From: Candidatus Uhrbacteria bacterium
Lineage (GTDB): Bacteria > Patescibacteriota > Patescibacteriia > UBA9934 > GWF2-40-263
Assembly (NCBI GenBank): GCA_016188495.1
Contig: JACPHU010000002.1
Span: forward strand, 7,363 to 71,362
Reading direction: 5' to 3'
Length of the DNA: 64,000 nucleotides
Made by a program: the position numbers and the translations under genes. Shown here piece by piece: positions 2,746-62,000 of the stretch. Below the pieces are notes generated by a model that did no database searches, had not been told where the DNA came from, and saw only the letters and a list, made by a program, of their open reading frames with translations. Position 1 is the first letter of the stretch; each line of letters opens with the position of its first letter.

Positions 2746-2940
2746 TTTGTAAATCTTCTTAAAATCGATGAGATTGCGGTGCACGTCATGCCGAAGGCAG
2801 ATCCGCCTCTGGCGGAGGCTGCCCGCCCGATCGTCGAACGTTCGTTCGGGCGGGTTGAGCCCCGAGAACCCTACTCAGAGTAGGGAGAACGGGGTCAACG
2901 GGCGCCCGTAAGCCGCAAGATCACTATTTTAAGAAGATTT
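2746..2940. repeat. family-1 palindromic MITE-like repeat, long form (copy A)
   Basis: perfect 15-bp TIR aaatcttcttaaaat/attttaagaagattt; internal gcccgcccga...tcgggcggg hairpin; ccctactcagagtaggg hairpin; similar to copies at 12834, 19406, 38033 and others. Confidence 0.8.
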
Positions 2941-3367
2941 ACTTTATTTCTACACCCATCTGACGTGCCGTTCCCGCAATAATATTCATGGCTGCATCAA
3001 CACTTTGGGTATTCAGATCAGGCATTTTCTTTTCTGCGATTTCTTTCAGCTGTGCCTTGGTAATGGAACCAACTTTGTTGGTGAGAGGATTGGCAGAACC
3101 GGACTTAATCCCAGCAGCTTTTTTGATCATGTCAGAAGCCGGAGCTGTTTTGGTAATGAAATCGAATGTGCGGTCATCGTAGACACTGATCACAACCGGA
3201 ACGGTTTCACCTCGTCGATCCTGTGTTTCGTTATTGAAACGGCTGACAAATTCTCCGATAGGGAGTCCGTGTTGACCCAGAGCTGGTCCGATAGGAGGGG
3301 CTGGTGTTGCGGCACCTCCTGGTACTTGTAATTTGATCTGTGTGACGAGTTTTTTGACTTTTGCCAT
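2939..3367 (-). CDS. rplK: 50S ribosomal protein L11
   Basis: [34 protein letters not shown] is the canonical L11 N-terminus. Confidence 0.92.
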
Positions 3368-5247: not shown

Positions 5248-5277
5248 AAAAAACGAGAGTCAAGACTCTCGTTTTTT
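5248..5277 (-). terminator. rho-independent terminator of gyrB
   Basis: aaaaaacgagagtcaagactctcgtttttt, perfect stem with flanking A/T runs. Confidence 0.65.
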
Positions 5278-5278
5278 A

Positions 5279-7378
<2,100 letters not shown>

Positions 7379-10747: not shown

Positions 10748-11849
10748 CATGTCTGGTATCCAGAAAAGATCCATCGACTTAATCCATTGGTTTAAGTCTT
10801 TAAAGAAAACTGACCGGCTTCTGTTGGTCGGTTTTCTTATTGCTGTCGTTCTTAGTGTATTTTGTTTGATGTTAATACCTCAGTTTTTTTATCAAACATC
10901 AAAAATCCAACCTTCTGACGACAAACAAACACAGGCAGTGATTGAACCCACCTATCGCCATCCGTTGACAGGTTCTCTTCTTTACGAAGAGAAGATAAGT
11001 CTTCCGCAGGTTTTTAGTGTCATGATCGATAATCACGAGGATGCTTGGCCACCTTCTGGATTAGAGGAAGCTTTTTTGGTGATTGAAGCACCCGTAGAGG
11101 GGGGTATTTCGCGGACGCTGGCTTTTTTTAGTAACGAACAGGAGGTAGAAAAAATTGGTCCTGTACGTTCTGCGCGTCCTTATTTTCTCGATTGGGCCAA
11201 TGAGTTAGACGCTGTCTATACGCATGTGGGTGGGTCTAATGCCGCTTTGGATTTAATTGCTTCTGGGGGAACATTTGATTTGAATGAGTATTGGTGGGGA
11301 GATTATTTTTGGAGGTCGAACGATCGTTACGCTCCTCATAACGTCTATACTTCCACGAAACTTCTTAATGAGTATTATGAGTTTCGAGAAGAGCAAGGAA
11401 AAACGCCAGAACGTCTTTATGGATTTTGGAAGTTTAAAGATCCTGAGTCCGTTCCAACGGTTGTCTCTCAGATACATATAGATTTTTCAACGCCTGTGTA
11501 CGTGGTTGATTGGGTTTATGACTCTCAGACACAAACGTATACACGATCTCAGTTTCACCAACGTCACCTTGCATCCTCTGGGAAGCAGATAAACGCGAAT
11601 AATATTGCTGTTGTCATCACAGACATTGATGTGATTGATTCCATTGGACGTCGTGAAATTCGAACGCTCGGAGAGGGGCAGGCGATTATTTTTCAAGATG
11701 GACAGATGATAAAGGCTTTATGGAAGAAGTCATCACACACAGAACGTTTGGCGTTTTATGATGCACAAAGCCAGAAGGAAATTTTTATGAATGCAGGAGT
11801 AACCTGGATTGAGGTGATCGAAAGTGAGGATGAATTGATGTATCAATAA
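10728..11849 (+). CDS. DUF3048-like (YerB-like) secreted/membrane-anchored protein
   Basis: N-terminal TM/signal; central region resembles DUF3048 lipoproteins; recalled similarity only. Confidence 0.4.
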   Translation: MNNHQSNMSGIQKRSIDLIHWFKSLKKTDRLLLVGFLIAVVLSVFCLMLIPQFFYQTSKIQPSDDKQTQAVIEPTYRHPLTGSLLYEEKISLPQVFSVMIDNHEDAWPPSGLEEAFLVIEAPVEGGISRTLAFFSNEQEVEKIGPVRSARPYFLDWANELDAVYTHVGGSNAALDLIASGGTFDLNEYWWGDYFWRSNDRYAPHNVYTSTKLLNEYYEFREEQGKTPERLYGFWKFKDPESVPTVVSQIHIDFSTPVYVVDWVYDSQTQTYTRSQFHQRHLASSGKQINANNIAVVITDIDVIDSIGRREIRTLGEGQAIIFQDGQMIKALWKKSSHTERLAFYDAQSQKEIFMNAGVTWIEVIESEDELMYQ

Positions 11850-11905
11850 TAACTGTTTAAATTTAAAAGCCGATCGTTTTGGAATGGTCTCAAAACGATC
11901 GGCTT

Positions 11906-12823
11906 TTAAATTTCGATGCTCATCACACGATCGTCTTGATGTAAATCCTGGTGTGTTTTTATTCGCGCTTCTGGGAAATTGTGTAAGACCATTTTTTCCG
12001 CTCGAGGACGTTGTTCAGGATCGATCTCTATGAACACAAGTATTTCGCGAGGAAGAACCACTTGATGGGTTCTAAGTTGTCGGAACAGTTCCCAGTAAGC
12101 ATCTAATCCATCTACGCCAGATACCAAGGCAAGCCGAGGTTCGAATTTTTGGACTTCCGGTTGGAGTGTTTCCATGCGATGTTCTGCCAGATAGGGGAGG
12201 TTTGCCGTGATAACAAGAGTTTTGAATGGATAGACAGAGGAAGTCTGTCTATTTTTTTGAGCCCGGATCATTTTAAATAATTTAATGAGAGGCTCTGCTA
12301 GATTTCCGCATTGGAATTCAACCGCATTTTCTGGAATAAGTTTTGCGGCGTTTTGTTCGGCTATGAAGAGAGCGTTGGAATCAATATCGGTTGCTATTAC
12401 AGGTCGTTGGGTTTCGGCCGCAATCGTGATCGCGATAGCGCCCGAACCTGTTCCAATATCAGCAACGAGTGTGCGTTCAGGATCCTTTTCTTGAAGGGCT
12501 GCCAGAACATGCTCAACGAGGATTTCTGTTTCTGGGCGCGGAATTAACACATGAGTGCTGACCTCAAATTCTCGGCCATAGAAGGCTTTTTTTCCTATGA
12601 GATAGGCGACAGGTTCCCGGGAGGCTCGCCGGCTCACCAACTCACAAAAACGTTCGTGATGATGAGTCTTGAGAGGTTCATTGAATCGTGAAAAGAGTTT
12701 TGCTTTAGATATTTCTAAGACAAATGCAAGGAGAATCTCTGCATCCAACATGGGTGAATCGACGTTTGATTTGCGCAACTTGTTATTCGCCCATTGAAGG
12801 GCTTCCATGATTGTCATAAGCAC
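11906..12823 (-). CDS. prmC: release factor glutamine N5-methyltransferase PrmC/HemK
   Basis: DIGTGSGAIAI SAM motif, NLPY variant of the NPPY motif; directly downstream of prfA. Confidence 0.8.
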   Translation of the reverse strand: MLMTIMEALQWANNKLRKSNVDSPMLDAEILLAFVLEISKAKLFSRFNEPLKTHHHERFCELVSRRASREPVAYLIGKKAFYGREFEVSTHVLIPRPETEILVEHVLAALQEKDPERTLVADIGTGSGAIAITIAAETQRPVIATDIDSNALFIAEQNAAKLIPENAVEFQCGNLAEPLIKLFKMIRAQKNRQTSSVYPFKTLVITANLPYLAEHRMETLQPEVQKFEPRLALVSGVDGLDAYWELFRQLRTHQVVLPREILVFIEIDPEQRPRAEKMVLHNFPEARIKTHQDLHQDDRVMSIEI

Positions 12824-12833
12824 TTCCTTTTAT

Positions 12834-13016
12834 TGAGATTCTTGTAAAACTCGATGAGATTGTCTGCCTACCGGCAGGTAGGCCTTGAATGGGCTGCCCG
12901 CCCGACCGTCGAACGTTCGTTCGGGCGGGTCGAGTACCGAGAACCCTATTCACATAGGGAGAACGGGATCGACGGGCGCCCGTGAAAGGCAAGATCGCGA
13001 GTTTTACAAGAATCTT
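12834..13016. repeat. family-1 palindromic MITE-like repeat, long form (copy B)
   Basis: perfect 18-bp TIR agattcttgtaaaactcg/cgagttttacaagaatct; contains the 35-nt gcccgcccga...cgggcggg module; abuts the prfA stop and prmC leader. Confidence 0.85.
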
Positions 13017-19405: not shown

Positions 19406-19568
19406 GAGACCTCTACAAAACTCGCGATCTTGCCTTTCACAGGCGCCCGTCGATCCCGTTCTCCCTATGATGAATAGGGTTCTCGGGATTCGACCTGCCC
19501 GAACGAACGTTCGACGGTCGGGCGGGCAGCCCGTTCAAGGCAATCTCATCGAGTTTTACAGAGGTCTC
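19406..19568. repeat. family-1 palindromic MITE-like repeat, long form, inverted orientation (copy C)
   Basis: 19-bp TIR gagacctctacaaaactcg/cgagttttacagaggtctc (1 mismatch); internal ccctatgatgaataggg hairpin and the 35-nt GC module; ends 18 nt before the rpsB start. Confidence 0.85.
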
Positions 19569-22596: not shown

Positions 22597-23784
22597 ATGA
22601 AATTACGCAAACTTGGAAATGCGATAAGTGTAAAAGGGAAACGAGTGCTTATTCGTATTGATGCCAACGTTCCTGTTGTCAAAGGTCGTGCTCAAGATGG
22701 TCCTCATGGACGGATTGCACGTTCTGCTGTTGATATTAACTGGCTGTCACAGCGTGGGGCAAAGGTGATTGTGATGGCTCATCTTGGCAGACCAAAAGGA
22801 AGGCGTGTTCCGGCCTATTCCCTTAAGCCCGTTGCTAAACGTCTCTCAGGATTACTCGGAAGTAAAATTAAACTTACCCGATCTGTCGTTGGGAAAGATG
22901 TCGAGAAATCTGTTGTGGCCATGCAAGAAGGAGATATTCTTTTATTGGAAAATTTACGTTTTGATTCAAGAGAAGAGGAAAACGCGCCGTCATTGGCTGA
23001 AGCTCTGGCCAGGCTAGGAGATTTATATGTGAATGACGCCTTCTCGGTTTCGCATAGGGCGCATGCCTCTGTTGATGCTCTTACCTCCAATCTTCCTTCT
23101 TATGCCGGACCATTGCTTGCTCAAGAAATAAGCGTGTTGAGCCGTCTAGAACAGAAAGCAAAACATCCATTTATTTTAGTGCTCGGAGGATTAAAAATGA
23201 GCACCAAACTTCCTATCATTAAGAGATTTATCGATCAGCTGGATTTCGTTCTTATCGCAGGAGCTTTGGCAAATATTTTTTTGGTCGCACAAGGATTCTC
23301 TGTTGGGAAATCTGTGTTTGAAGAGGGTGTTCTTGAAGAAGCAAAATGGTTGCTCAGTACGCATGGCGAAAAGATCGTCCTGCCGGTGGATGTGTTGTGT
23401 GTGCGTTCATTGCGTAAAGACGCAAAGAGAACTGTTTGTTCTATCGATCAAATTCACGAAAAAGACCGTGTCGTCGATATTGGTCCACAGACGCAAAAAC
23501 AGTTTGAGCAAATTCTTCATCAAGCCAAAACGATCGTCTGGAACGGACCCCTTGGCTACTGTGAAATACCTGCCTTTGCCCAGGCAACTGAGCAAATCGC
23601 AAAAGTTATTGCTCATCAAACAAGTCACGCAACCACGATTGTGGGCGGAGGAGATACGCTTCCCGTCATTGAATCACTCCATTTAGCTGATAAATACACG
23701 CTTCTTTCAACCGGAGGCGGGGCTCTTCTCCAATTTCTCTCAGGGGAATCGCTTCCGGGTATTGATGCGCTTAAAACTTCATAG
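22597..23784 (+). CDS. pgk: phosphoglycerate kinase
   Basis: KGKRVLIRIDANVPV N-terminal motif; hinge and C-terminal GGGDT-like region; start trimmed to MKLRK. Confidence 0.9.
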   Translation: MKLRKLGNAISVKGKRVLIRIDANVPVVKGRAQDGPHGRIARSAVDINWLSQRGAKVIVMAHLGRPKGRRVPAYSLKPVAKRLSGLLGSKIKLTRSVVGKDVEKSVVAMQEGDILLLENLRFDSREEENAPSLAEALARLGDLYVNDAFSVSHRAHASVDALTSNLPSYAGPLLAQEISVLSRLEQKAKHPFILVLGGLKMSTKLPIIKRFIDQLDFVLIAGALANIFLVAQGFSVGKSVFEEGVLEEAKWLLSTHGEKIVLPVDVLCVRSLRKDAKRTVCSIDQIHEKDRVVDIGPQTQKQFEQILHQAKTIVWNGPLGYCEIPAFAQATEQIAKVIAHQTSHATTIVGGGDTLPVIESLHLADKYTLLSTGGGALLQFLSGESLPGIDALKTS

Positions 23785-23901
23785 AACTTCCTCACTTGGC
23801 GCATAGCTTTGTCGAAATCTACGTTTTTTGTTCACTGTATGTGAATACAGCTCATAAAAAGCCTCGATTTCTTCGCGCTCTGCATCCAATTGAGAAAGTT
23901 C
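23784..23901. repeat. family-2 palindromic repeat (copy K1) between pgk and eno
   Basis: TIR gaacttcctcacttgg/ccaattgagaaagttc; about 95% identical to the copy at 40861-40979. Confidence 0.8.
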
Positions 23902-23910
23902 TACATCATT

Positions 23911-36500: not shown

Positions 36501-37061
36501 ATGGTACGTTCAGCAACAAAACGAAACATCCGTTGGGGATCGAGTGTGGGAACAGGAATTATTGTTCTTTGTTTATTTCTTCTTTTTATTTTGGGTGTTA
36601 AGTGGTTTCGTTCTGAGCCTGTCGAAGAAAAAAATACCGTTCCTTCTCTTGTGAATGTGTTGACACCGGATCCTATTTCTCAAACGCTTATAAACGGATC
36701 TGTTGATACGAAAAGTCAGGAAGCAAAGCTTGTCTGGACCGCAACAGGAGAATCGGTTGGAATGGCCGTGCGAGGAAAAAAGGATGAGAAATATTACCTT
36801 GATTTAAAGGCTGTCTTGCCTGAAATCGATTCAGAGCAGGTGTATTATCAGATATGGCTTCTACGTCGCTTGCCTTATGATTTTTTTTCTTTAGGAGCAA
36901 TGATTGTGCAGGAAGACGGATCTTTTGTTTTTCAATGGGAGGCTCCTTCCGATGATGAAGACTATTTGAACTATACAGAGATTGTTATTACAGCCAATCA
37001 ATATACCGGTAGTGCTGATCCTGGAGCCCATTTAGTTGAAGGGACTTTTGGAAAGTACTAA
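36501..37061 (+). CDS. hypothetical membrane-anchored protein
   Basis: 186 aa, single N-terminal TM helix. Confidence 0.45.
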   Translation: MVRSATKRNIRWGSSVGTGIIVLCLFLLFILGVKWFRSEPVEEKNTVPSLVNVLTPDPISQTLINGSVDTKSQEAKLVWTATGESVGMAVRGKKDEKYYLDLKAVLPEIDSEQVYYQIWLLRRLPYDFFSLGAMIVQEDGSFVFQWEAPSDDEDYLNYTEIVITANQYTGSADPGAHLVEGTFGKY

Positions 37062-37107
37062 TGGTAGCGATTCCCTCTAAAATTCATTGAGTGGGTTAGA
37101 GAGCTTT

Positions 37108-37356
37108 CTATCCATCTGTATAGAGTTCAACCAGTCGCCATTCAAGAAATTCTGAATCCAGTTTGAGTTTGAAGTAATTGTTTACATCCGAGACGGAAAA
37201 ATAGTAGATACGTTTGTGCCCCTCATGAGAACTTTGGACAAGATTTACGGTTTTAATGACGTAGTTTTGTTCGTTCCATCTGAGTGAACAGGGGAGAATA
37301 CGATTATCTTTAAACGAAACGACGACATCGATAGGGTCGTTAAGTAGTTCGTGCAT
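37108..37356 (-). CDS. small hypothetical protein (82 aa)
   Basis: ORF only; lies downstream of lexA and flanked by a repeat copy. Confidence 0.3.
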   Translation of the reverse strand: MHELLNDPIDVVVSFKDNRILPCSLRWNEQNYVIKTVNLVQSSHEGHKRIYYFSVSDVNNYFKLKLDSEFLEWRLVELYTDG

Positions 37357-37371
37357 AGGAAAAGATGTTTA

Positions 37372-37497
37372 AACCTCTGCAAAACTCGCGATCTTGCCTT
37401 TCACGGGCGCCCGTTGACCACACTCTCCCTATTCTGAATAGGGTTCGTGCGGCTCAACAGCCCGTTCAAGGCAATCTCATCGAGTTTTGCAAAGGTC
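37372..37497. repeat. family-1 repeat, short form (copy D)
   Basis: TIR acctctgcaaaactcg/cgagttttgcaaaggtc; lacks the 35-nt GC module. Confidence 0.8.
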
Positions 37498-37938
37498 TTA
37501 TTATATGTGAAAGAAGTTCACGGAGAGTTCGTTTGATTTGACGGCGGCTTGTGCGGATACGAAATAAACGCAATCCTTTTGCCATTCGTTGATCGCGTCG
37601 ACGTGGAAGAAAGCAAAACGTATTAAAGTGATGACGAAGGATGGAGGTAGACATAATAAAGAGGGTTTAGATGAATGATTGGGATCAATCGTCTAAGACA
37701 ACGGCTCGGCCGCAAAAAGGATCAAGGACGTGATCTCTTCTATTCCGCTCAGATTGAATAGAAGAACGATCTTTCCTTTTTCCAGCTTTGTAGCAGAGTC
37801 GTTATCTTGGACACATGAAGGATAAGATCAGAGAGATTTTTCCGGCCTAGTTGCTCTCCGATCTTTCCTTTATTACAATAAAAAAGCTGCCATACGTCTG
37901 GGATTTCGTTCCCGCACGTAACCGGTGGTTTTTGTAAG

Positions 37939-37981
37939 GAACACTGTTTTGTCTTGCCGGACGCCAGTGTTCTTTTTTTTG
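37939..37981 (+). terminator. rho-independent terminator in an ORF-free region
   Basis: gaacactg...cagtgttc stem followed by T8. Confidence 0.5.
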
Positions 37982-38032
37982 CACAGACTGTTGTGTGATC
38001 CCGTTCACAACAGAATGCACATGAAATCTCTC

Positions 38033-38190
38033 CATAAATCGATGAGATTGCGGTGCACGGGCTGCCCGCCCGACTGAACGACGAGCAATCCTGTTCAGTC
38101 GTTCGGGCGGGTCGAGCTCCGCGAACCCTACTCACAGTAGGGAGAGTGGAGTCGACGGGGCCCGTAAGCCGCAAGATCGCGATTTCTGGA
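38033..38190. repeat. family-1 repeat, long form (copy E)
   Basis: aaatcgatgagattgcggtgcacg start identical to copy A; gcccgcccga...cgggcggg module; ends 10 nt from the lexA stop. Confidence 0.8.
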
Positions 38191-38199
38191 GGGATTTCT

Positions 38200-38814
38200 C
38201 TACACAGGTTGGAATTTTCGTATAACAGCTCTTACTACTCCTTGGATGATGCAGTCTTGGACATAAATAGGATCCATTGAACTGTTTGCTGGTTGGAGAC
38301 GGATTCTATTTTTTTCTCGGTAGAAGCGTTTGAGTGTGGCAAAGGCGTTGTCCATGAGAGCAACGACCACCTCGCCGTTTCTGGGAGAGGGATTGCGTTC
38401 GATCACCACAAAGTCTCCGTTGAGAATCCCGTCTTCGATCATTGAACGTCCTTTGACCCGCAGAACATAAGAGTTAGCACCATCTAGGACAAAGTCTGCA
38501 GGAACGGCCATGGCTTCGTTGTCTTGTACGGCTTCGATAGGTTCTCCGGCTGTGATGAGTCCCAACAGAGGGAGCATGATTGATGATTCGGATGGAGATT
38601 CTTGTACAAGTTCGATAGATCGGGCTTCGCCGTCTTCTCCGTTGGTAATAAGACCTTTTTCTAAAAGCATTTGAACGTGCCCATGTACCGTTGCAGGAGA
38701 GGATAATCCAAAATGGTCGGCAATTTCACGATAGGATGGAGCATAACCATTTTCGCTCAGGTGTTCGCGAATGAATTCCAGAACTTCAGCCTGTTTTTTT
38801 GTGAGTGGTGGCAT
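38200..38814 (-). CDS. lexA: SOS transcriptional repressor LexA (S24 peptidase)
   Basis: N-terminal wHTH (LSENGYAPSYREIA), Ala-Gly cleavage region, GRSM Ser-nucleophile motif and the catalytic Lys in the C-terminal region. Confidence 0.9.
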   Translation of the reverse strand: MPPLTKKQAEVLEFIREHLSENGYAPSYREIADHFGLSSPATVHGHVQMLLEKGLITNGEDGEARSIELVQESPSESSIMLPLLGLITAGEPIEAVQDNEAMAVPADFVLDGANSYVLRVKGRSMIEDGILNGDFVVIERNPSPRNGEVVVALMDNAFATLKRFYREKNRIRLQPANSSMDPIYVQDCIIQGVVRAVIRKFQPV

Positions 38815-38825
38815 AGGGGAGTAAG

Positions 38826-38953
38826 GAGACCTCTACAAAACTCGCGATCTTGCCTTTCACGGGCACCCGTCGATCCCGTTCTCCCTATGTGAATAGGGTT
38901 CTCGGGACTCGACAGCCCGTTCAAGGCGATCTCATCGAGTTTTGTAGAGGTCT
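38826..38953. repeat. family-1 repeat, short form (copy F) in the lexA 5' leader
   Basis: perfect 19-bp TIR gagacctctacaaaactcg/cgagttttgtagaggtctc; begins 12 nt upstream of the lexA start codon. Confidence 0.85.
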
Positions 38954-38972
38954 CTAAGTGAAGTGGATAACT

Positions 38973-39014
38973 GTTCGCTTTCTGTTCGTATTATATTGCG
39001 AACAAAAACCGAAC
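38973..39014. promoter_or_regulatory. candidate LexA operator: composite palindrome TGTTCG-N6-GTTCG-N10-CGAAC-N6-CGAACA
   Basis: two GTTC-N7-GTTC / GAAC-N7-GAAC half-sites arranged as a 17-bp inverted repeat in the lexA/metK divergent region. Confidence 0.3.
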
Positions 39015-39115
39015 ACAAGAGAAGGGTGTGGATATCGTTTTTTATTCACCTAACATCCCCAAGTTTTGCGATGACAGTCGAGTAAAATTTTGGTATTCTG
39101 AGGCAGTATTTCTTT

Positions 39116-39314
39116 GGAGATCTTTGTAAAACTCGATGAGACCTACTTGCCGGTAGGCAGGTAGCCTTGCCTGCCTGTCGGCAGACAGGAATGGGGAAAC
39201 CCGTCCGAACGGACATAAGGCCGGGCGGGTCGGCGACAGAGTCGTACCTAAACGTACGGCGACAAGCCGATGAGGCCCCATGAAATGAAAGATCGCGAGT
39301 TTTGCAAAGATCTC
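39116..39314. repeat. family-1 repeat, variant subfamily (copy G), abutting the metK start
   Basis: TIR agatctttgtaaaactcg/cgagttttgcaaagatct; interior shares gaatggggaaacccgtccgaacggacataaggccgggcgggt with the repeat at 61806-62000. Confidence 0.8.
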
Positions 39315-39315
39315 T

Positions 39316-40362
39316 ATGAAGAAAACGGTCGAGTCTGTCACACAAGGTCATCCGGACAAAATCTGCGATCAGATCGCTGATGCGATCGTGGATGAGTATT
39401 TGCGTCGGGATAAACACGCACAAGTAGATGTAAATGTTTTGGGGTCCCATGGCATGGTAATGATCGCGGGAGAGGTAACCTCTACGGCTGATTTTGATAT
39501 CGGAGCGCTTGCTCAAAAAGTGTACGAAGAGATCGGATATAAAGATGATATAGAAGTCTTTGTAAATATCGAAACGCAATCCGACGAAATGAAACGCATT
39601 ACCAATGGGGTAATGGACAACGTTGTGGTGAATGGATATGCCACACAGGAGACCCGTGAATTGTTACCAAGATCACTTGTCTATGCTCATAATCTCGCTC
39701 GTCGTTTAGATGATTTGCGAAAATCAGACCCGGCTTTTTCTTGGCTCAAACCAGATGGAAAGATACAGCTTACGATGGAGGGGGATCGTGTGTGTGCGGT
39801 GACGGTTCTTGCCTCTCATCACGTCAGTATTCAAGAGAAAGAAGTGAAGACCGCTCTATTGGATCGTTTATTGGTTCCTGTCGTGGGAGAAGAAGGCGTC
39901 CAAATATATATCAATCCTGTCGGTTCGTTTCATCAAGCAGGTTTTCGATCCGACTCAGGAGCCAGTGGTCGTAAATTAACGGTAGATACCTACGGAGGTC
40001 TTGTTCCGCAAGGAGACAAATCTCTTTCGGGGAAAGACCCCACAAAAGTAGATCGCGCCGCTGCTTACATGGCCCGGTTTGCTGCACGATTTATTGTGGA
40101 ACAAGGTCTTGCGACCTCCGCGATGGTGACATTGGTTTATTCGATGGGGCAACCGCAGCCGATTTATCTTCAAGCATTGGGAATGGGGGAAAAATCTCGA
40201 GGAAGCAAGATGGATCTCACCAATGTGTTAAAACAAACTTTCGATTTTCGTCCTCAAGCGATTGTAGAGTTTTTGGATCTGATTCAGCCGCTGTATCGCG
40301 CTACAGCGGCTTATGGACATTTTGGGAGACAGGGATTCCCTTGGGAAGATAAAGTGTTATAG
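39316..40362 (+). CDS. metK: S-adenosylmethionine synthetase
   Basis: ESVTQGHPDKICDQIADAIVD N-terminal signature; 348 aa, shorter than the typical 380-400 aa. Confidence 0.85.
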   Translation: MKKTVESVTQGHPDKICDQIADAIVDEYLRRDKHAQVDVNVLGSHGMVMIAGEVTSTADFDIGALAQKVYEEIGYKDDIEVFVNIETQSDEMKRITNGVMDNVVVNGYATQETRELLPRSLVYAHNLARRLDDLRKSDPAFSWLKPDGKIQLTMEGDRVCAVTVLASHHVSIQEKEVKTALLDRLLVPVVGEEGVQIYINPVGSFHQAGFRSDSGASGRKLTVDTYGGLVPQGDKSLSGKDPTKVDRAAAYMARFAARFIVEQGLATSAMVTLVYSMGQPQPIYLQALGMGEKSRGSKMDLTNVLKQTFDFRPQAIVEFLDLIQPLYRATAAYGHFGRQGFPWEDKVL

Positions 40363-40373
40363 TAAAATCATCT

Positions 40374-40847
40374 ATGGCAGGGAGGAAACAGCAGAAAAAA
40401 GAATCAGGTTGGTCAATCGCGATTGTGGTCGCGATTGTTTTTGTTGCGAGTTTGTTTTTGATTGTGCGATCTGCTCCGGAACAGGTGTTTGCTTTTTCTC
40501 AAGACGCAAGAGTACAGCTCACAGGTGTGACACGGTCTTCTGGATCTGTTGAAATTCAACGGCTCGATGACGTTGAAAAATCTGTTCGATATCTTTTGAG
40601 TCCCGTGTATGAAATCACGCTGACAAGCCAGGGAACGATTCAGAACGGAGAATTACTTTTTTTCTTTGAAAGAACAGCAGAACATAACCCGACGCAGGAG
40701 ATCGTTCTTTATACGTTTAATACGGATACTCTTGATTGGGAATCCATCCCTGCTTTTTTTGATTTTTCTACGCAGTCATTCACTGCGCCTATAGAATTTT
40801 CGGGCAGTCTGTTGGTTGCGGTTGGATCACGTGTTAAAAGTGAATAA
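40374..40847 (+). CDS. hypothetical membrane-anchored protein
   Basis: 157 aa; N-terminal TM helix. Confidence 0.45.
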   Translation: MAGRKQQKKESGWSIAIVVAIVFVASLFLIVRSAPEQVFAFSQDARVQLTGVTRSSGSVEIQRLDDVEKSVRYLLSPVYEITLTSQGTIQNGELLFFFERTAEHNPTQEIVLYTFNTDTLDWESIPAFFDFSTQSFTAPIEFSGSLLVAVGSRVKSE

Positions 40848-40860
40848 CTTAGGACTTCCT

Positions 40861-40979
40861 CACTTGGCGCATAGCTTTTCGAAATCTACGTTTTTTGTTC
40901 ACTGTATGTGAATACAGCTCACAAAAAGCCTCGATTTCTTCGCGCTCTGCATCCAATTGAGAAAGTCCTATAACTTCGA
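40861..40979. repeat. family-2 palindromic repeat (copy K2)
   Basis: TIR aggacttcctcacttgg/ccaattgagaaagtcct; near-identical to the copy at 23784-23901. Confidence 0.85.
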
Positions 40980-46563: not shown

Positions 46564-47037
46564 ATGTTGACCGATTATATTCTTGGAGGATCATTGGGCG
46601 GCCTCATTGCGTTTGTTTTTGCTATTCCTGCTATCGTGTTAGAAATGACTGAATCAGGCAAGGTGAAAAACGCTCCTCTCTTGGTTGATGTAAAAACGAT
46701 TTTTGGATTGAAGATTATTCATAAACACGAAGTTTTTTTTATCGGATTGCTTCTTCATCTTGTGTTTGGTTTTCTGTTTGGGATTGTCTACGTTTTGTTC
46801 GTGGAACAAGGATGGCTTTTTGTCACACATGCTCCTTATACCGTTTTTTCTCTTGTTGTCTTTGCTTTTTTAAGTTGGGTTGTTGTAGGGGTGATTATTT
46901 ATCCGTTGTTAGGTTTAGGTATTTTTGGATTAAAAGAAGGTCCACGTGTATGGCTTGAAACACTTACCTCTCATTTGATTTTAGCTTTTTCTTTGTGGCT
47001 TTTAGTACGGTATTTTCAGCCATTCTTTTTTAATTAG
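46564..47037 (+). CDS. hypothetical polytopic membrane protein
   Basis: 157 aa, four to five TM helices. Confidence 0.45.
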   Translation: MLTDYILGGSLGGLIAFVFAIPAIVLEMTESGKVKNAPLLVDVKTIFGLKIIHKHEVFFIGLLLHLVFGFLFGIVYVLFVEQGWLFVTHAPYTVFSLVVFAFLSWVVVGVIIYPLLGLGIFGLKEGPRVWLETLTSHLILAFSLWLLVRYFQPFFFN

Positions 47038-47158
47038 GACTTTCTCATTTGGCGATCTACTTGCGCTTCGCCCATAAAAACCTGCGTCGTATATCTGTAT
47101 ACGCCTCCGGTTTTTATGGACTCCAGCGCGGCGCATCTCATCCAAATGAGAAAGTCCT
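47036..47158. repeat. family-2-related palindromic repeat (copy K3, divergent interior)
   Basis: TIR aggactttctcatttgg/ccaaatgagaaagtcct matches K1/K2 termini; the interior differs. Confidence 0.7.
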
Positions 47159-47181
47159 ATTAATCCTCCATTATAGCAAGC

Positions 47182-50591: not shown

Positions 50592-50743
50592 TTTCCTCGA
50601 ACTGAAGATTTACCGTAGACCACGGGCGGCTCTGTTGAAGAGTGGAAGTCCTGTGCAGGTGAGTATTTCCTTATGGTATTAAGGAAGTAGATCATTACTA
50701 CGGCATAAATCCGTAGTTTATTTATTTTTAAAGGTCGAACATA

Positions 50744-50873
50744 GAGATCTCTCAAAAAATCATGATCTTACGGCTTACGGGCGCCCGTCGACCCCACTCT
50801 CCCTATTCTGAATAGGGTTCGCGGGGCTCGACAGCCCGTGCACCGTAATCTCATCGATTTTTTGAGAGATCTC
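50744..50873. repeat. family-1 repeat, short form (copy H) inside the rplJ leader
   Basis: TIR gagatctctcaaaaaatc/gattttttgagagatctc; the core gggcgcccgtcgaccccactctccctattctgaatagggttcgcggggctcgacagcccg is shared with copies at 37372 and 56314. Confidence 0.85.
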
Positions 50874-50883
50874 AACATTCATT

Positions 50884-51844: not shown

Positions 51845-51854
51845 AGAGGAAATT

Positions 51855-51895
51855 TAAAAAAATCCCCAGAGTACGTACTCTGGGGATTTTTTTAT
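51855..51895. terminator. bidirectional rho-independent terminator after rplL
   Basis: aaaaaaatccccagagtac gtactctggggattttttt. Confidence 0.7.
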
Positions 51896-56306: not shown

Positions 56307-56313
56307 GACATAA

Positions 56314-56425
56314 GTAAAACTCGCGATCTTGACGTTTTCGGGCGCCCGTCGACCCCACTCTCCCTATGGTGAATAGGGTTCGCGGGGCTCGACAGCCCGA
56401 AAACGTCAATCTCATCGAGTTTTAC
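56314..56425. repeat. family-1 repeat, short form (copy I) upstream of the GT2 gene
   Basis: gtaaaactcgcgatcttgacgttttcgggcgcccg...cgggcgcccgaaaacgtcaatctcatcgagttttac. Confidence 0.85.
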
Positions 56426-56444
56426 ATATGCCTCTCTTCATAAA

Positions 56445-57942: not shown

Positions 57943-58995
57943 ATGAATGATCCAATCATCAGTCTCCATATCGTAACCTGGAATTCGATGCGATTTCTTC
58001 CAGATTTATTATCATCGATCAAAGAACAGACTTTTAAAGAAATAAATATTCTTATCATTGATAATGCTTCAAGTGATGGTGTTGAAGATTTTGTCAAAGA
58101 GCACTATCCGGAGATTGTATTTATACGTAATGCCAGAAATCTTGGTTTTTCAGCAGCTCATAATCAGGGTATTCGTTATGCGATTGAACATTGGCCGAAG
58201 GAAGCGCTCCAAGATCGGTTTATCCTGTTAACCAATCCGGACATCATTTTTACCCCAACGTATCTTGAAGAACTCATCGCCTCTGCACGTGTGCATCCAG
58301 AAGTGGCAAGTTTTGGAGGAAAACTGTTGAGGGCTTTTGGAGAAAACATTGGGGATGAAGTATTTAAACAAACCGTTCGTTCTGATCGTTTGGATTCCGT
58401 AGGACTTAATCCACATAGAAATTATACGGTCACTGACCGTGGAGCTGGAGAACTAGATCAGGGTCAGTATGATGAAGAAGCCTTTGTCTTTGGTATTTCT
58501 GGGGCCCTTGTTTTATTTCGGGCTTCCTCACTAGAGGATGTTCGTTATCAAGATGAAATTTTAGATCATCATTTTTTTGCCTATAAAGAGGATGTGGATC
58601 TTGCTTGGCGTTTACAGCAGGCAGGTTGGGACGCTTTCTATGTTCCTCGTGCGGTTGCCTATCATTATCGCGGAATGTATGGACCAGAAAAAAGCGGTCT
58701 GTGGCAGCGATTGCGCAATCATCGTTCAAAATCTTCTTTACGGAATTTTTTTTCAACAAGAAACCATTGGTTAATGCTCATCAAGAATATTCATAGCCGT
58801 CATTTTTTTCTCGCTCTTCCCTGGATTGCTTTCTATGAAGGGGGAAGACTGATATATGTCTTATTTTTCGAACATTCCGGACTTCGAACAATAAAAGAAA
58901 CGTGTTCATTGTTTCCCGTGATGTTAAAAAAACGTGCACACGTGTTTAAAAAAGCAAAACGTTCAGCGAAAGATCTTCGCCATTGGTTTGTATGA
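57943..58995 (+). CDS. family-2 glycosyltransferase
   Basis: LHIVTWNS...ILIIDNASSDG...NLGFSAAHNQG GT2 signature. Confidence 0.8.
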   Translation: MNDPIISLHIVTWNSMRFLPDLLSSIKEQTFKEINILIIDNASSDGVEDFVKEHYPEIVFIRNARNLGFSAAHNQGIRYAIEHWPKEALQDRFILLTNPDIIFTPTYLEELIASARVHPEVASFGGKLLRAFGENIGDEVFKQTVRSDRLDSVGLNPHRNYTVTDRGAGELDQGQYDEEAFVFGISGALVLFRASSLEDVRYQDEILDHHFFAYKEDVDLAWRLQQAGWDAFYVPRAVAYHYRGMYGPEKSGLWQRLRNHRSKSSLRNFFSTRNHWLMLIKNIHSRHFFLALPWIAFYEGGRLIYVLFFEHSGLRTIKETCSLFPVMLKKRAHVFKKAKRSAKDLRHWFV

Positions 58996-59825
58996 TTGAC
59001 GTCTCTATTCTCATTGTTCACTACAATACCCCGGGACTGTTGCGGCAGACGCTCAAAGGAATTCGTCGGGCTGCTCCCAAACTTTCTTATGAAGTGATCG
59101 TGGTTGATAATAATCCTGCCATGCGCGTTGGGGAAATGATCACACGAGAATTTCCTGAAACGATTTGTCTTGTTCAAGAACAAAACGTTGGTTTTGGTTC
59201 TGGAATGAATGCAGCAATGGAGAGAGCGAAGGGAAGTTATTTTTTTATTTTTAATCCTGACATGATTCTCATGCCAGAGGCTCTTGAAAAGCTTAAGGCG
59301 TTTATGGATCTTCACCCGAAGGTTGGGGTTTTGGGGCCTCGACTTTCTCACCCCGATGGCTCTTTGCAATACAGCAGCTATCGTTTTATGGATCCTTTGG
59401 TGATTTTCTATCGCCGTATTCCTTTTTTAAGATCCCTTTCTTTTGCGAAACGTTGTGTGGACCAGTATTTGATGGTTGGGGAAGATGCAAATAAAACGCG
59501 AGATGTTGATTATCTTTTAGGGGCCGCCTTATTTGTTCGTGCTAAGGCTGTGACGGAAGTCGGTGGGTTTGATCCAGCTTTTTTTGTGTATTTTGAAGAT
59601 CAAGATTGGTGTCGCCGTTTTTGGGAAGCCGGATGGAGAGTCGTTTATTACCCTCAGGTCAACCTTATTCATTACCATCGTCGCGAGACCGCGGAAGGGG
59701 GTTTTTTAAAACAGCTGTTAAATCCGTTAACCTGGATCCAGGTAAAAAGTGCTCTTTATTATTATAAGAAGTATCATAAGAGACATGTCGCACACAACAA
59801 ACTTTCTTCATCACACACAGACTGA
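58983..59825 (+). CDS. family-2 glycosyltransferase
   Basis: ILIVHYNTP...VIVVDNNP...NVGFGSGMNAA GT2 signature. Confidence 0.8.
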   Translation: MVCMIDVSILIVHYNTPGLLRQTLKGIRRAAPKLSYEVIVVDNNPAMRVGEMITREFPETICLVQEQNVGFGSGMNAAMERAKGSYFFIFNPDMILMPEALEKLKAFMDLHPKVGVLGPRLSHPDGSLQYSSYRFMDPLVIFYRRIPFLRSLSFAKRCVDQYLMVGEDANKTRDVDYLLGAALFVRAKAVTEVGGFDPAFFVYFEDQDWCRRFWEAGWRVVYYPQVNLIHYHRRETAEGGFLKQLLNPLTWIQVKSALYYYKKYHKRHVAHNKLSSSHTD

Positions 59826-61805: not shown

Positions 61806-62000
61806 TTTTTTTCTAAAATTGATGAGATTTCGTTGAATGGGGAAACCCGTCCGAACGGACATAAGGCCGGGCGGGTTGGCGACAGAGCTGTATTCACATA
61901 CAGTGACCCTTCGATAGACTCAGGATCAGTCTGAGCTTGTCGAAGACTGACGAGCCAATGGGGCCCCATGAAACGAAAGATCGCAATTTTAGAAAAAATT
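61806..62000. repeat. family-1 variant repeat (copy J) with nested family-3 motif, abutting the mreB start
   Basis: TIR ttttttctaaaattg/caattttagaaaaaa; shares a 50-nt core with the repeat at 39116-39314; the interior contains ctgagcttgtcgaag and cccttcga blocks of family 3. Confidence 0.8.

Follow-up and report, generated by a model that had tools for sequence, protein, structure and literature searches.

What are the four repeats that bracket lexA in the genome of a Candidatus Uhrbacteria bacterium, and does their gathering around the master regulator of the SOS response tie them to stress? We examined a stretch of 64,000 nt (assembly GCA_016188495.1, contig JACPHU010000002.1, positions 7363–71362; hereafter, the window), of which an earlier sequence-only reading had proposed that such a link was conceivable. 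The repeats proved to be long hairpins that insert in non-coding DNA, duplicate 5 or 7 bp of their target, and are present or absent at orthologous sites. They are probably a non-autonomous family of mobile hairpins resembling miniature inverted-repeat transposable elements (MITEs), so far confined to Candidatus Uhrbacteria and expanded in this genome. Their clustering at lexA is real as a description, and we found no evidence that it reflects a connection with the SOS response.

Four copies of one hairpin family surround lexA

The four repeats (copies E, C, B, and A in order along the window) (Table 1) share two boxes that are invariant among them and read AAAACTCGCGATCTTG ... CAATCTCATCGAGTTTT on one strand; the conserved motif of the family is CTCGATGAGAT / AGATCGCGAG. 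A covariance model trained on 47 copies was used to score the window, and it recovered copy E at 132 bits (37365–37504, E-value 7e-29), copy B at 128 bits (38821–38959, 7e-28), and copy C at 55 bits (38036–38185, 7e-11). Copy A reached 22 bits only (39181–39319) because of its large internal insertions; it has both conserved boxes and the terminal stem in common with the others. The common boxes and model matches establish the four as real members of one family, as the sequence-only reading had held, and the limits it had given needed little change beyond those of copy C, which it had placed at 38033–38190. Its statement that the copy at 38826 starts 12 nt from the lexA ATG was likewise correct. 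Between copy A and the metK start codon there is 1 nt, and between copy B and that of lexA there are 11 nt.

Each copy folds into a very stable hairpin, more so on one strand, which we denote S. Free energies on S and on the opposite strand were −80.4 and −62.4 kcal/mol for copy E, −112.4 and −95.6 kcal/mol for copy C, and −106.1 and −86.1 kcal/mol for copy A; copy B folded at −81.1 kcal/mol. Copies C and A are longer than E and B (126–129 nt) owing to extra GC-rich hairpin modules in their inner half, one in copy C and two or three in copy A. Copy B is flanked by a 4-bp direct repeat (TAAG, 38822–38825 and 38955–38958), and a promoter-like site lies upstream of copy A (39071–39099).

Pattern searches followed by the covariance model identified 10 copies of the main family and three of a sister family in the window. 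With four of the 10, the lexA region is its densest repeat cluster, as had been claimed. The window LexA is 90%–91% identical to Uhrbacteria LexA proteins with the Pfam domains LexA_DNA_bind and Peptidase_S24, including that of GW2011_GWF2_39_13. The 5′ end of lexA had no exact match among metagenome contigs, and no identical LexA protein is on record.

A fixed asymmetric core in stems of free sequence

Each copy is an imperfect palindrome of 125–200 nt that forms a single long, rod-like hairpin. The element encodes nothing; open reading frames (ORFs) occur only as spurious ones running through the hairpin. Its terminal stem, 18–19 bp long, varies in sequence and keeps its complementarity, and the same holds for the inner stems. 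Some 19 bp inward from either tip is a core that is asymmetric and invariant. On strand S it reads 5′-CUCG-A-UGA-GA-U ... A-GA-UCG-CGAG-3′: one A is bulged, a helix of 3 bp is closed by U.G, and G.A pairs in tandem form a loop. At these positions the complementary strand has C.A and pyrimidine mismatches. Beyond the core are the inner stems and an apical region that can bear the extra GC-rich modules. In divergent members with CUCG/CGAG replaced (UUGG/CCAA, AACG/CGUU), the bulged A, the U.G-closed helix, and the small loop are kept, 16–19 bp from the tip.

The stems covary across the family. In the 47-sequence alignment, the 42 consensus pairs were 96% paired, compared with 76% in column shuffles and 32%–47% for slid partners; 28 of the 42 had changes on both sides, and none of 500 shuffles reached any of these measures. 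Strand S folded better by 8–20 kcal/mol in six of the seven window copies that were folded and in nearly all copies elsewhere. Outside the core, G.U exceeded A.C on S by 54:19 when counted by cell, where cells are not independent, and by 16:7 when counted by column (p = 0.09).

We compared the hairpin with known structured RNAs and terminal sequences. At the gathering threshold no Rfam family matched anywhere in the window, and at E < 10 the region 37300–39400 gave chance matches only (at most 22 bits); a tRNA and tmRNA scan was also negative. The core fits no kink-turn, C/D-box, hammerhead, or hairpin-ribozyme reading when compared by hand with consensus motifs, as it has neither a 3-nt bulge beside the G.A pairs nor CUGANGA...GAAA. 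A likeness of AAAACTCGCG to the Tn3 inverted repeat was dropped, as it stands at another distance from the tip and GGGG is missing at the ends.

The architecture recalls integron attC sites or Xer-type sites marking gene cassettes: the size is attC-like, and an imperfect palindrome with an unpaired loop, an extrahelical base, a variable apex, and a frequent place after stop codons is what such sites would present. The copies, however, have no RYYYAAC/GTTRRRY core sites (the positions read GCAAAAC ... GTTTTGC), occur in both orientations, are flanked by syntenic housekeeping genes and not by cassettes, and carry target duplications; the element alone, without a gene, is present or absent, and the window holds no integrase. 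The core sites, the orientation, the duplications, and the missing integrase refute this reading, to which we attach a practically negligible probability.

Copies are insertions with target duplications

Direct repeats of at least 5 nt flanked 22 of 82 copies, against 1.4 expected when left and right flanks were re-paired (maximum of seven in 2000 permutations); for repeats of at least 7 nt, the numbers were eight and 0.13. The length of the duplication is characteristic of the subfamily. Members with CTTGAATT ends have 7-bp target duplications, as in the near-identical copies of the metagenome-assembled genome (MAG) JAUYIW (ends YCTTGAATT...), which are flanked, for example, by AAACTTA, TCTTTTA, TCTCTTC, TGATATA, and TATAATA. 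Members that end in GAGACC...AAAACTCG have 5-bp repeats (for example, ACTTC, TCGCT, TCCCT, and GTTTA), as does the sister family. Target duplications are thus of fixed length, and they are degraded in older copies.

Insertion polymorphism was evident against the closest relative, GW2011_GWF2_39_13, whose lexA contig (L083) is 82%–86% identical to the window at the nucleotide level and collinear with it over 31.6–45.3 kb. The contig carries none of copies A, B, C, and E, nor the sister copy at 40844–40976, so that five of the 10 + 3 copies dispersed over the 64 kb are missing from orthologous sites. Its metK–lexA spacer measures 162 bp, compared with 501 bp in the window. At the site of copy E, the flanks overlap by 3 bp (TAA), and directly before metK, where the window has copy A, the relative reads GGAGATTTTTATG. 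A further hairpin at 37671–37868, also absent from L083, was considered as a fifth insertion and rejected: it is present in L091 and partly in L090 and represents an older structured spacer that L083 lost. Together with the small size, the lack of coding capacity, and terminal inverted repeats formed by an 18–19-bp stem, these observations give the family most of the features of a MITE.

Within the young JAUYIW subfamily we counted 21 single changes and no compensated doubles, whereas changes between subfamilies are compensated; in the wider JAUYIW subfamily, the changes comprised 14 G.U, eight A.C, and five others. It therefore appears that propagating lineages maintain the pairing and that copies already in residence do not.

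Copies often start 0–5 nt past an upstream stop codon or abut a start codon, and in the window their neighbours are housekeeping genes (rplK/rplA, prfA/prmC, rpsB, rplJ, pgk/eno, an MscS-like gene, mreB, lexA, and metK). Where the flanking genes are co-directional, antisense placement of S outnumbered sense placement by 35 to 16 (p = 0.011, from crude ORF calls), and S lay on the C-rich strand in 45 cases against 25 (p = 0.02). A rival reading is that the hairpins are cis-acting RNAs that serve the host, for example as mRNA stabilisers, RNase III processing sites, or insulators between genes, having been co-opted so that their mobility is only historical. The placement beside stop and start codons, copies in highly expressed operons (rplK–rplA, rplJ, rpsB, prfA–prmC), the same spacers filled in distant genomes, and the persistence of the family over genomes of 39%–62% GC speak in its favour. 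On the other hand, copies occur in both orientations relative to transcription, more often antisense on S; uncompensated mismatches pile up in young copies; the closest relative does without copies at the same genes; and there is neither a U-tract for termination nor an Rfam match. No T-run follows the elements, and a scan for intrinsic terminators over 37000–39500 found only a chance site inside metK. We regard a host-serving RNA as quite unlikely.

For two spacers, occupancy extends to other genomes. In locus L028, the mreB spacer contains an oppositely oriented member of a different subfamily (5250–5390), and the spacer after the MscS-like gene is also filled in L024 (5194–5333), a genome about 72% identical. 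The shared occupancy points to insertion hot-spots or to replacement.

The position at lexA is most simply incidental

If all spacers are treated as equal targets, the clustering is nominally significant: at least four of 10 copies fall in two adjacent spacers with p = 0.009, and the equal-target null gives p = 0.002–0.009 overall. Once spacers are weighted by the non-coding length that remains after removal of the elements, p rises to 0.23. The sequence-only reading would have seen a sampling effect if repeat density at lexA were no higher than the intergenic average; the outcome is, roughly, that it is not clearly higher. The lexA spacers are among the longest in the window, and because they are among the longest non-coding stretches on offer, the position at lexA is most simply incidental.

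We compared lexA loci from eight relatives, of which seven were scanned with the covariance model (∼110 kb, non-redundant) and the eighth was L012. Among the seven, a copy lies inside the lexA operon in L091 only; L086/L087 have one copy, far from lexA, and in L012 a copy closes the operon at its distal end. Six of the eight thus have no copy near lexA, and the closest relative lacks all four.

The comparison yielded a presumed LexA operator. Upstream of lexA, ten Uhrbacteria loci have a motif of the form TTGCGTTCGGTTTTTGTTCG-N10-CGAACATAANNCGAACA, which is absent from the rest of the 823 kb of DNA from Uhrbacteria. It is made of four GTTCG/CGAAC half-sites, arranged as two direct repeats (N6) in inverted orientation that bracket the −35 and −10 elements. 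On the lexA strand of the window the order is −35 TTGTGT, GTTCG-N6-GTTCG, −10 TATAAT, and CGAAC-N6-CGAAC; across loci the −35 is TTGCGT or TTGTGT and the −10 TATAAT, TACAAT, or TACCAT. The spacing GTTC-N7-GTTC recalls the SOS box of alphaproteobacteria. For the SOS system, this is a useful by-product: the phylum gains a well-supported architecture of the lexA promoter and presumed operator.

The last half-site lies 6–87 nt from the ATG in relatives and 158 nt from it in the window (38973 and 38814), and copy B accounts for 129 of the 158 nt; the lexA leaders of L083, L086, and L089 to L093 have no copy B. The proposal that a copy separates lexA from its presumed operator is right: copy B parts operator and coding sequence, and leaves operator and promoter together. 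Copy B lies downstream from an intact promoter and operator, and hence in the 5′ untranslated region (UTR), so repression at the promoter should be untouched.

We also observed that the GC-rich modules of copies at 2830–2850, 12905–12925, and 19495–19515 contain CGAAC-N4-GTTCG, with the same pentamers as the operator half-sites, arranged as in the SOS box of Gram-positive bacteria. An exact match to it is missing from all four copies that flank lexA.

The conjecture of a stress link, in which lexA is a target or an inducing site of transposition or copies were selected to modulate lexA expression under stress, could appeal to four of 10 copies within 2 kb around lexA and their equal-target p-value, to copy B between operator and ATG, and to the L091 copy, also inside a lexA operon. 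It has to contend with the loss of significance once target length is considered, with the six relatives that have no copy near lexA, and with the location of most copies at unrelated housekeeping genes, among them genes for ribosomal proteins, translation factors, and cell shape. Moreover, the operator sequence (GTTCG-N6-GTTCG / CGAAC-N6-CGAAC) was found in lexA promoters only and in no element copy, including the four that flank lexA. The link is unsupported, and we consider it very improbable.

The family appears restricted to Uhrbacteria

To map the family (MITE-like hairpins with the two boxes), the pattern CTCGCGATCTT-N72-102-ATCTCATCGAG was scanned with exact boxes over one genome per species (185,579 species). 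It returned 82 stretches, of which about 71 were true hairpins and the rest chance matches in coding sequence of high-GC genomes. MAGs bearing the label Candidatus Uhrbacteria supplied most true hairpins, several per genome, at loci of 39%–62% GC; the remainder belonged to MAGs that are unclassified, assigned to Parcubacteria or Patescibacteria, or, in a few cases, labelled otherwise. In two contigs with the label Gammaproteobacteria (L061 and L076), genes are 68%–78% identical at the protein level to Uhrbacteria genes, and by this measure the labels are probably binning errors. Contigs L018, L021, L035, and L042, among which the labels Gammaproteobacteria or Lentisphaerae occur, are possibly mis-binned carriers of the element as well. 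On this sampling, the element appears to be restricted to Uhrbacteria.

Plasmid and phage collections contained nothing similar to the element, and viral contigs yielded a single chance match in an ORF-like stretch with no hairpin. We found no published description of such elements in the literature on Uhrbacteria, Parcubacteria, or the candidate phyla radiation (CPR)/Patescibacteria and regard the family as a previously undescribed MITE-like one.

No mobilising enzyme was found near the copies. A search for an autonomous version, in which paired boxes or mutually complementary end arms could be separated by as much as 6 kb, gave pairs of separate copies or chance matches only, and no box pair or complementary arms enclosed an ORF in the window or in ∼760 kb of relatives. 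A Pfam scan detected no transposase, integrase, HUH protein, or reverse transcriptase among 50 window ORFs, nor among 110 ORFs flanking copies in relatives. The 110 flanking ORFs matched 114 Pfam families with at most two members each, and no family was enriched.

A mobile hairpin, presumably moved in trans

In the explanation that we prefer, a transposase encoded elsewhere would move the element in trans by a staggered cut of the target, recognising the conserved sub-terminal core. Pairing of the stem would be needed for propagation and not by the host, because young copies decay without compensation while subfamilies differ by compensated changes. At lexA, the insertions would place hairpins of −80 to −110 kcal/mol inside the lexA and metK mRNAs. 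Bases of the former metK Shine-Dalgarno sequence would pair in the foot of the copy A hairpin, and the hairpins could dampen translation, offer targets to RNase III, or uncouple the genes of the operon.

Several observations weigh against this account. Neither the window, nor the ∼760 kb of related loci, nor plasmids and phages yielded an autonomous insertion sequence (IS) that shares these ends, so we only infer mobilisation in trans. Roughly one copy in four still displays a target duplication, and the existence of two duplication lengths implies either a pair of enzymes or one that is flexible. Copies A and B have no clean empty site in L083, where divergence blurs the junctions, and the mreB and MscS-like spacers are filled in genomes only 72%–83% identical, which could mean that a host function has kept the copies there, as opposed to repeated insertion. 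Simple recognition of inverted repeats at the ends would leave unexplained why pairing extends over the whole length, why insertions are always hairpins, and why the two arms differ in a fixed manner (CGATCT and ATGAGAT) throughout the phylum. One strand also folds better in nearly every copy, with an excess of G.U over A.C on it (54:19, or 16:7 by column).

These last features would be explained if the element moved as a folded single strand, of DNA or RNA, that is read by its shape, a version that refines the transposition account and is not opposed to it. The enzyme would see the bulged A, the U.G helix, and the G.A loop, cut about 19 bp away whatever the sequence of the stem, and integrate with a stagger of 5 or 7 bp. 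Terminal stems that differ wholly between subfamilies of one genome and still remain complementary and constant in length are in agreement with this, as are the invariant asymmetry of the core, internal insertions that are always self-complementary modules, the advantage of 8–20 kcal/mol on one strand, and the bias of S against transcription (35:16) and onto the C-rich strand (45:25). To our knowledge, shape-read transposition with target duplications has not been described for any bacterial repeat. The established single-strand hairpin systems (IS200/IS605, REP/RAYT, and integron attC) are not known to duplicate their targets, whereas the elements here do so, and the constant lengths are those that staggered cuts of both strands typically give. 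The excess of G.U reaches only p = 0.09 by column and is absent from the young subfamily (14:8), and any long terminal inverted repeat would display the same "covariation". We hold reading by shape to be possible, if rather unlikely, and continue with the MITE-like family as the preferred explanation.

Other features of the window

The coordinates of all features are collected in Table 1. The elements make up most intergenic regions longer than ∼130 bp in the window. Within the sister family, the copies at 23776–23909 and 40844–40976 are more diverged than the one at 47029.

Table 1. Hairpin copies, genes, and regulatory sites in the window, with operator positions in related loci
Feature	Position	Strand	Remarks
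Family copy	2749..2945	+	between rplK and rplA
Family copy	12835..13016	+	between prfA and prmC
Family copy	19409..19565	-	upstream of rpsB
Sister-family hairpin	23776..23909	-	TAGGACTTTCTCA... ends; between pgk and eno
82-aa ORF of lexA operon	37108..37356	-	conserved; no Pfam match
Element copy E	37372..37497	-	S = minus; between small basic ORF and 82-aa ORF of lexA operon
Arginine-rich small ORF (62 aa) of lexA operon	37466..37654	-	MSTxxLRHHxNTxxFLPRxRD... in L083, L086, L089, L091
Element copy C	38023..38198	+	S = plus, antisense to lexA; begins 1 nt past lexA stop
lexA (204 aa)	38200..38814	-	ORF
Element copy B	38826..38954	-	lexA 5′ UTR; S in sense orientation
lexA promoter and presumed LexA operator	38973..39018	-	conserved in ten Uhrbacteria lexA loci
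Presumed operator in relatives	L083 5948-5990, L086 4313-4355, L089-L093, L012 5191-5240		
Element copy A	39116..39314	+	metK 5′ UTR; S in sense orientation
metK (S-adenosylmethionine synthetase)	39316..40362	+	divergent from lexA; syntenic gene in relatives has S-AdoMet_synt Pfam domains
Sister-family hairpin	40844..40976	-	5-bp flanking repeat TAACT; not in L083
Sister-family hairpin	47029..47165	-	keeps core: bulged A, UGA/UCG, GA/GA
Family copy	50739..50878	-	abuts rplJ start; compensated variant of boxes; covariance model 119 bits
Family copy	56312..56430	-	after MscS-like gene
Family copy	61820..61990	+	upstream of mreB

Downstream from lexA, relatives have a structured spacer, an arginine-rich ORF of 57–62 aa, an 82-aa ORF, and, in some genomes, dinB. 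In the window, copy E supplies the last 10 codons of the arginine-rich ORF in place of the original ones. This small gene and the 82-aa gene always follow lexA in Uhrbacteria, often with dinB next in line, and may be uncharacterised SOS genes. The structured non-coding spacer between lexA and the small ORF spans ∼370 nt (37655–38022, minus strand) and includes a rod-like hairpin of ∼130 nt at 37671–37868. It is kept in L091 (10616–10965), partly kept in L090 (10616–10905), and missing in L083; it may act as a leader or attenuator, or may represent a hairpin element of greater age. In L086, L089, and L090, a conserved hairpin with a U-run stands right after lexA in place of the structured spacer. 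At another related locus (L092, 6211–7566), we noted a diversity-generating retroelement, with an RVT_1 reverse transcriptase and a bAvd-like gene, ∼1.2 kb past the far end of metK and ∼2.4 kb upstream of lexA.

Three family copies lie in the rplK–rplA spacer and the rpsB and rplJ leaders (2749–2945, 19409–19565, and 50739–50878). In other bacteria, these positions hold autoregulatory RNA structures of ribosomal proteins; none of the ribosomal-protein leader families of Rfam was detected in the window. Classical bidirectional intrinsic terminators, perfect GC-rich hairpins between A-runs and T-runs, occur at 1952–2009, 11849–11923, and 51854–51895, and the genome is therefore not reliant on the mobile hairpins for termination. 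The stretch 58983–59825 is not non-coding: it holds a 280-aa ORF that overlaps the predicted start of the next gene and resembles the preceding glycosyltransferase.

Significance and comparison with known systems

CPR/Patescibacteria are considered to have streamlined genomes with little mobile DNA. In the present 64-kb stretch, roughly 3% consists of one kind of hairpin element, which sits within core operons (the L11–L1, L10, and S2 ribosomal-protein operons, RF1–PrmC, and lexA). For annotation, it explains most of the longer intergenic regions of the window along with spurious ORFs, and it is a likely cause of assembly breaks in Uhrbacteria MAGs. Filled and empty sites constitute natural alleles with which to ask how very stable leader hairpins affect expression in organisms that are so far genetically intractable. 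A free stem sequence combined with a fixed asymmetric loop makes the family a candidate for finding a new transposition enzyme. If reading by shape were true, the element would represent a new mobile class, long active in Uhrbacteria, that joins shape recognition of the attC or IS608 kind to target duplication of the DDE or retroelement type.

Among known systems, integron attC sites share with the element a recognition defined by structure (stem, unpaired spacer, extrahelical base, and variable tip) and the placement after stop codons; unlike them, the element has no R/L core motifs, integrase, cassette arrays, or fixed orientation, and it has duplications. REP/REPIN–RAYT systems resemble it in being long-lived, vertically inherited intergenic hairpins with a conserved short motif beside a variable stem and no internal transposase, and single-strand folding with strand asymmetry is plausible in both. 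REPINs, however, are doublets of 20–40-nt REPs with a conserved GTAG, are known for no target duplication, and flank a RAYT gene, whereas the element is a single continuous hairpin with another motif and clear duplications, and the DNA examined, which did not comprise whole genomes, contained no RAYT-like or Y1 gene.

The closest likeness is to the long-hairpin MITEs of bacteria, namely Correia/NEMIS in Neisseria, RUP in Streptococcus pneumoniae, and ERIC/IRU in enterobacteria. Members of these families, too, are non-coding, ∼100–200 bp long, and bounded by terminal inverted repeats; they fold over the whole element, occur in many intergenic copies, are co-transcribed with their neighbours, and show presence/absence polymorphism and target-site duplications, and ERIC in addition has size variants that arise from internal insertions. 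The Uhrbacteria element differs from them in its duplications of 5 or 7 bp and not TA and in that no parent IS is known for it; plasmid, phage, and Rfam collections gave no similar sequence. It is further set apart by the combination of a free terminal stem sequence with an internal asymmetric loop that is invariant throughout the phylum, and by its residence in a small-genome CPR host.

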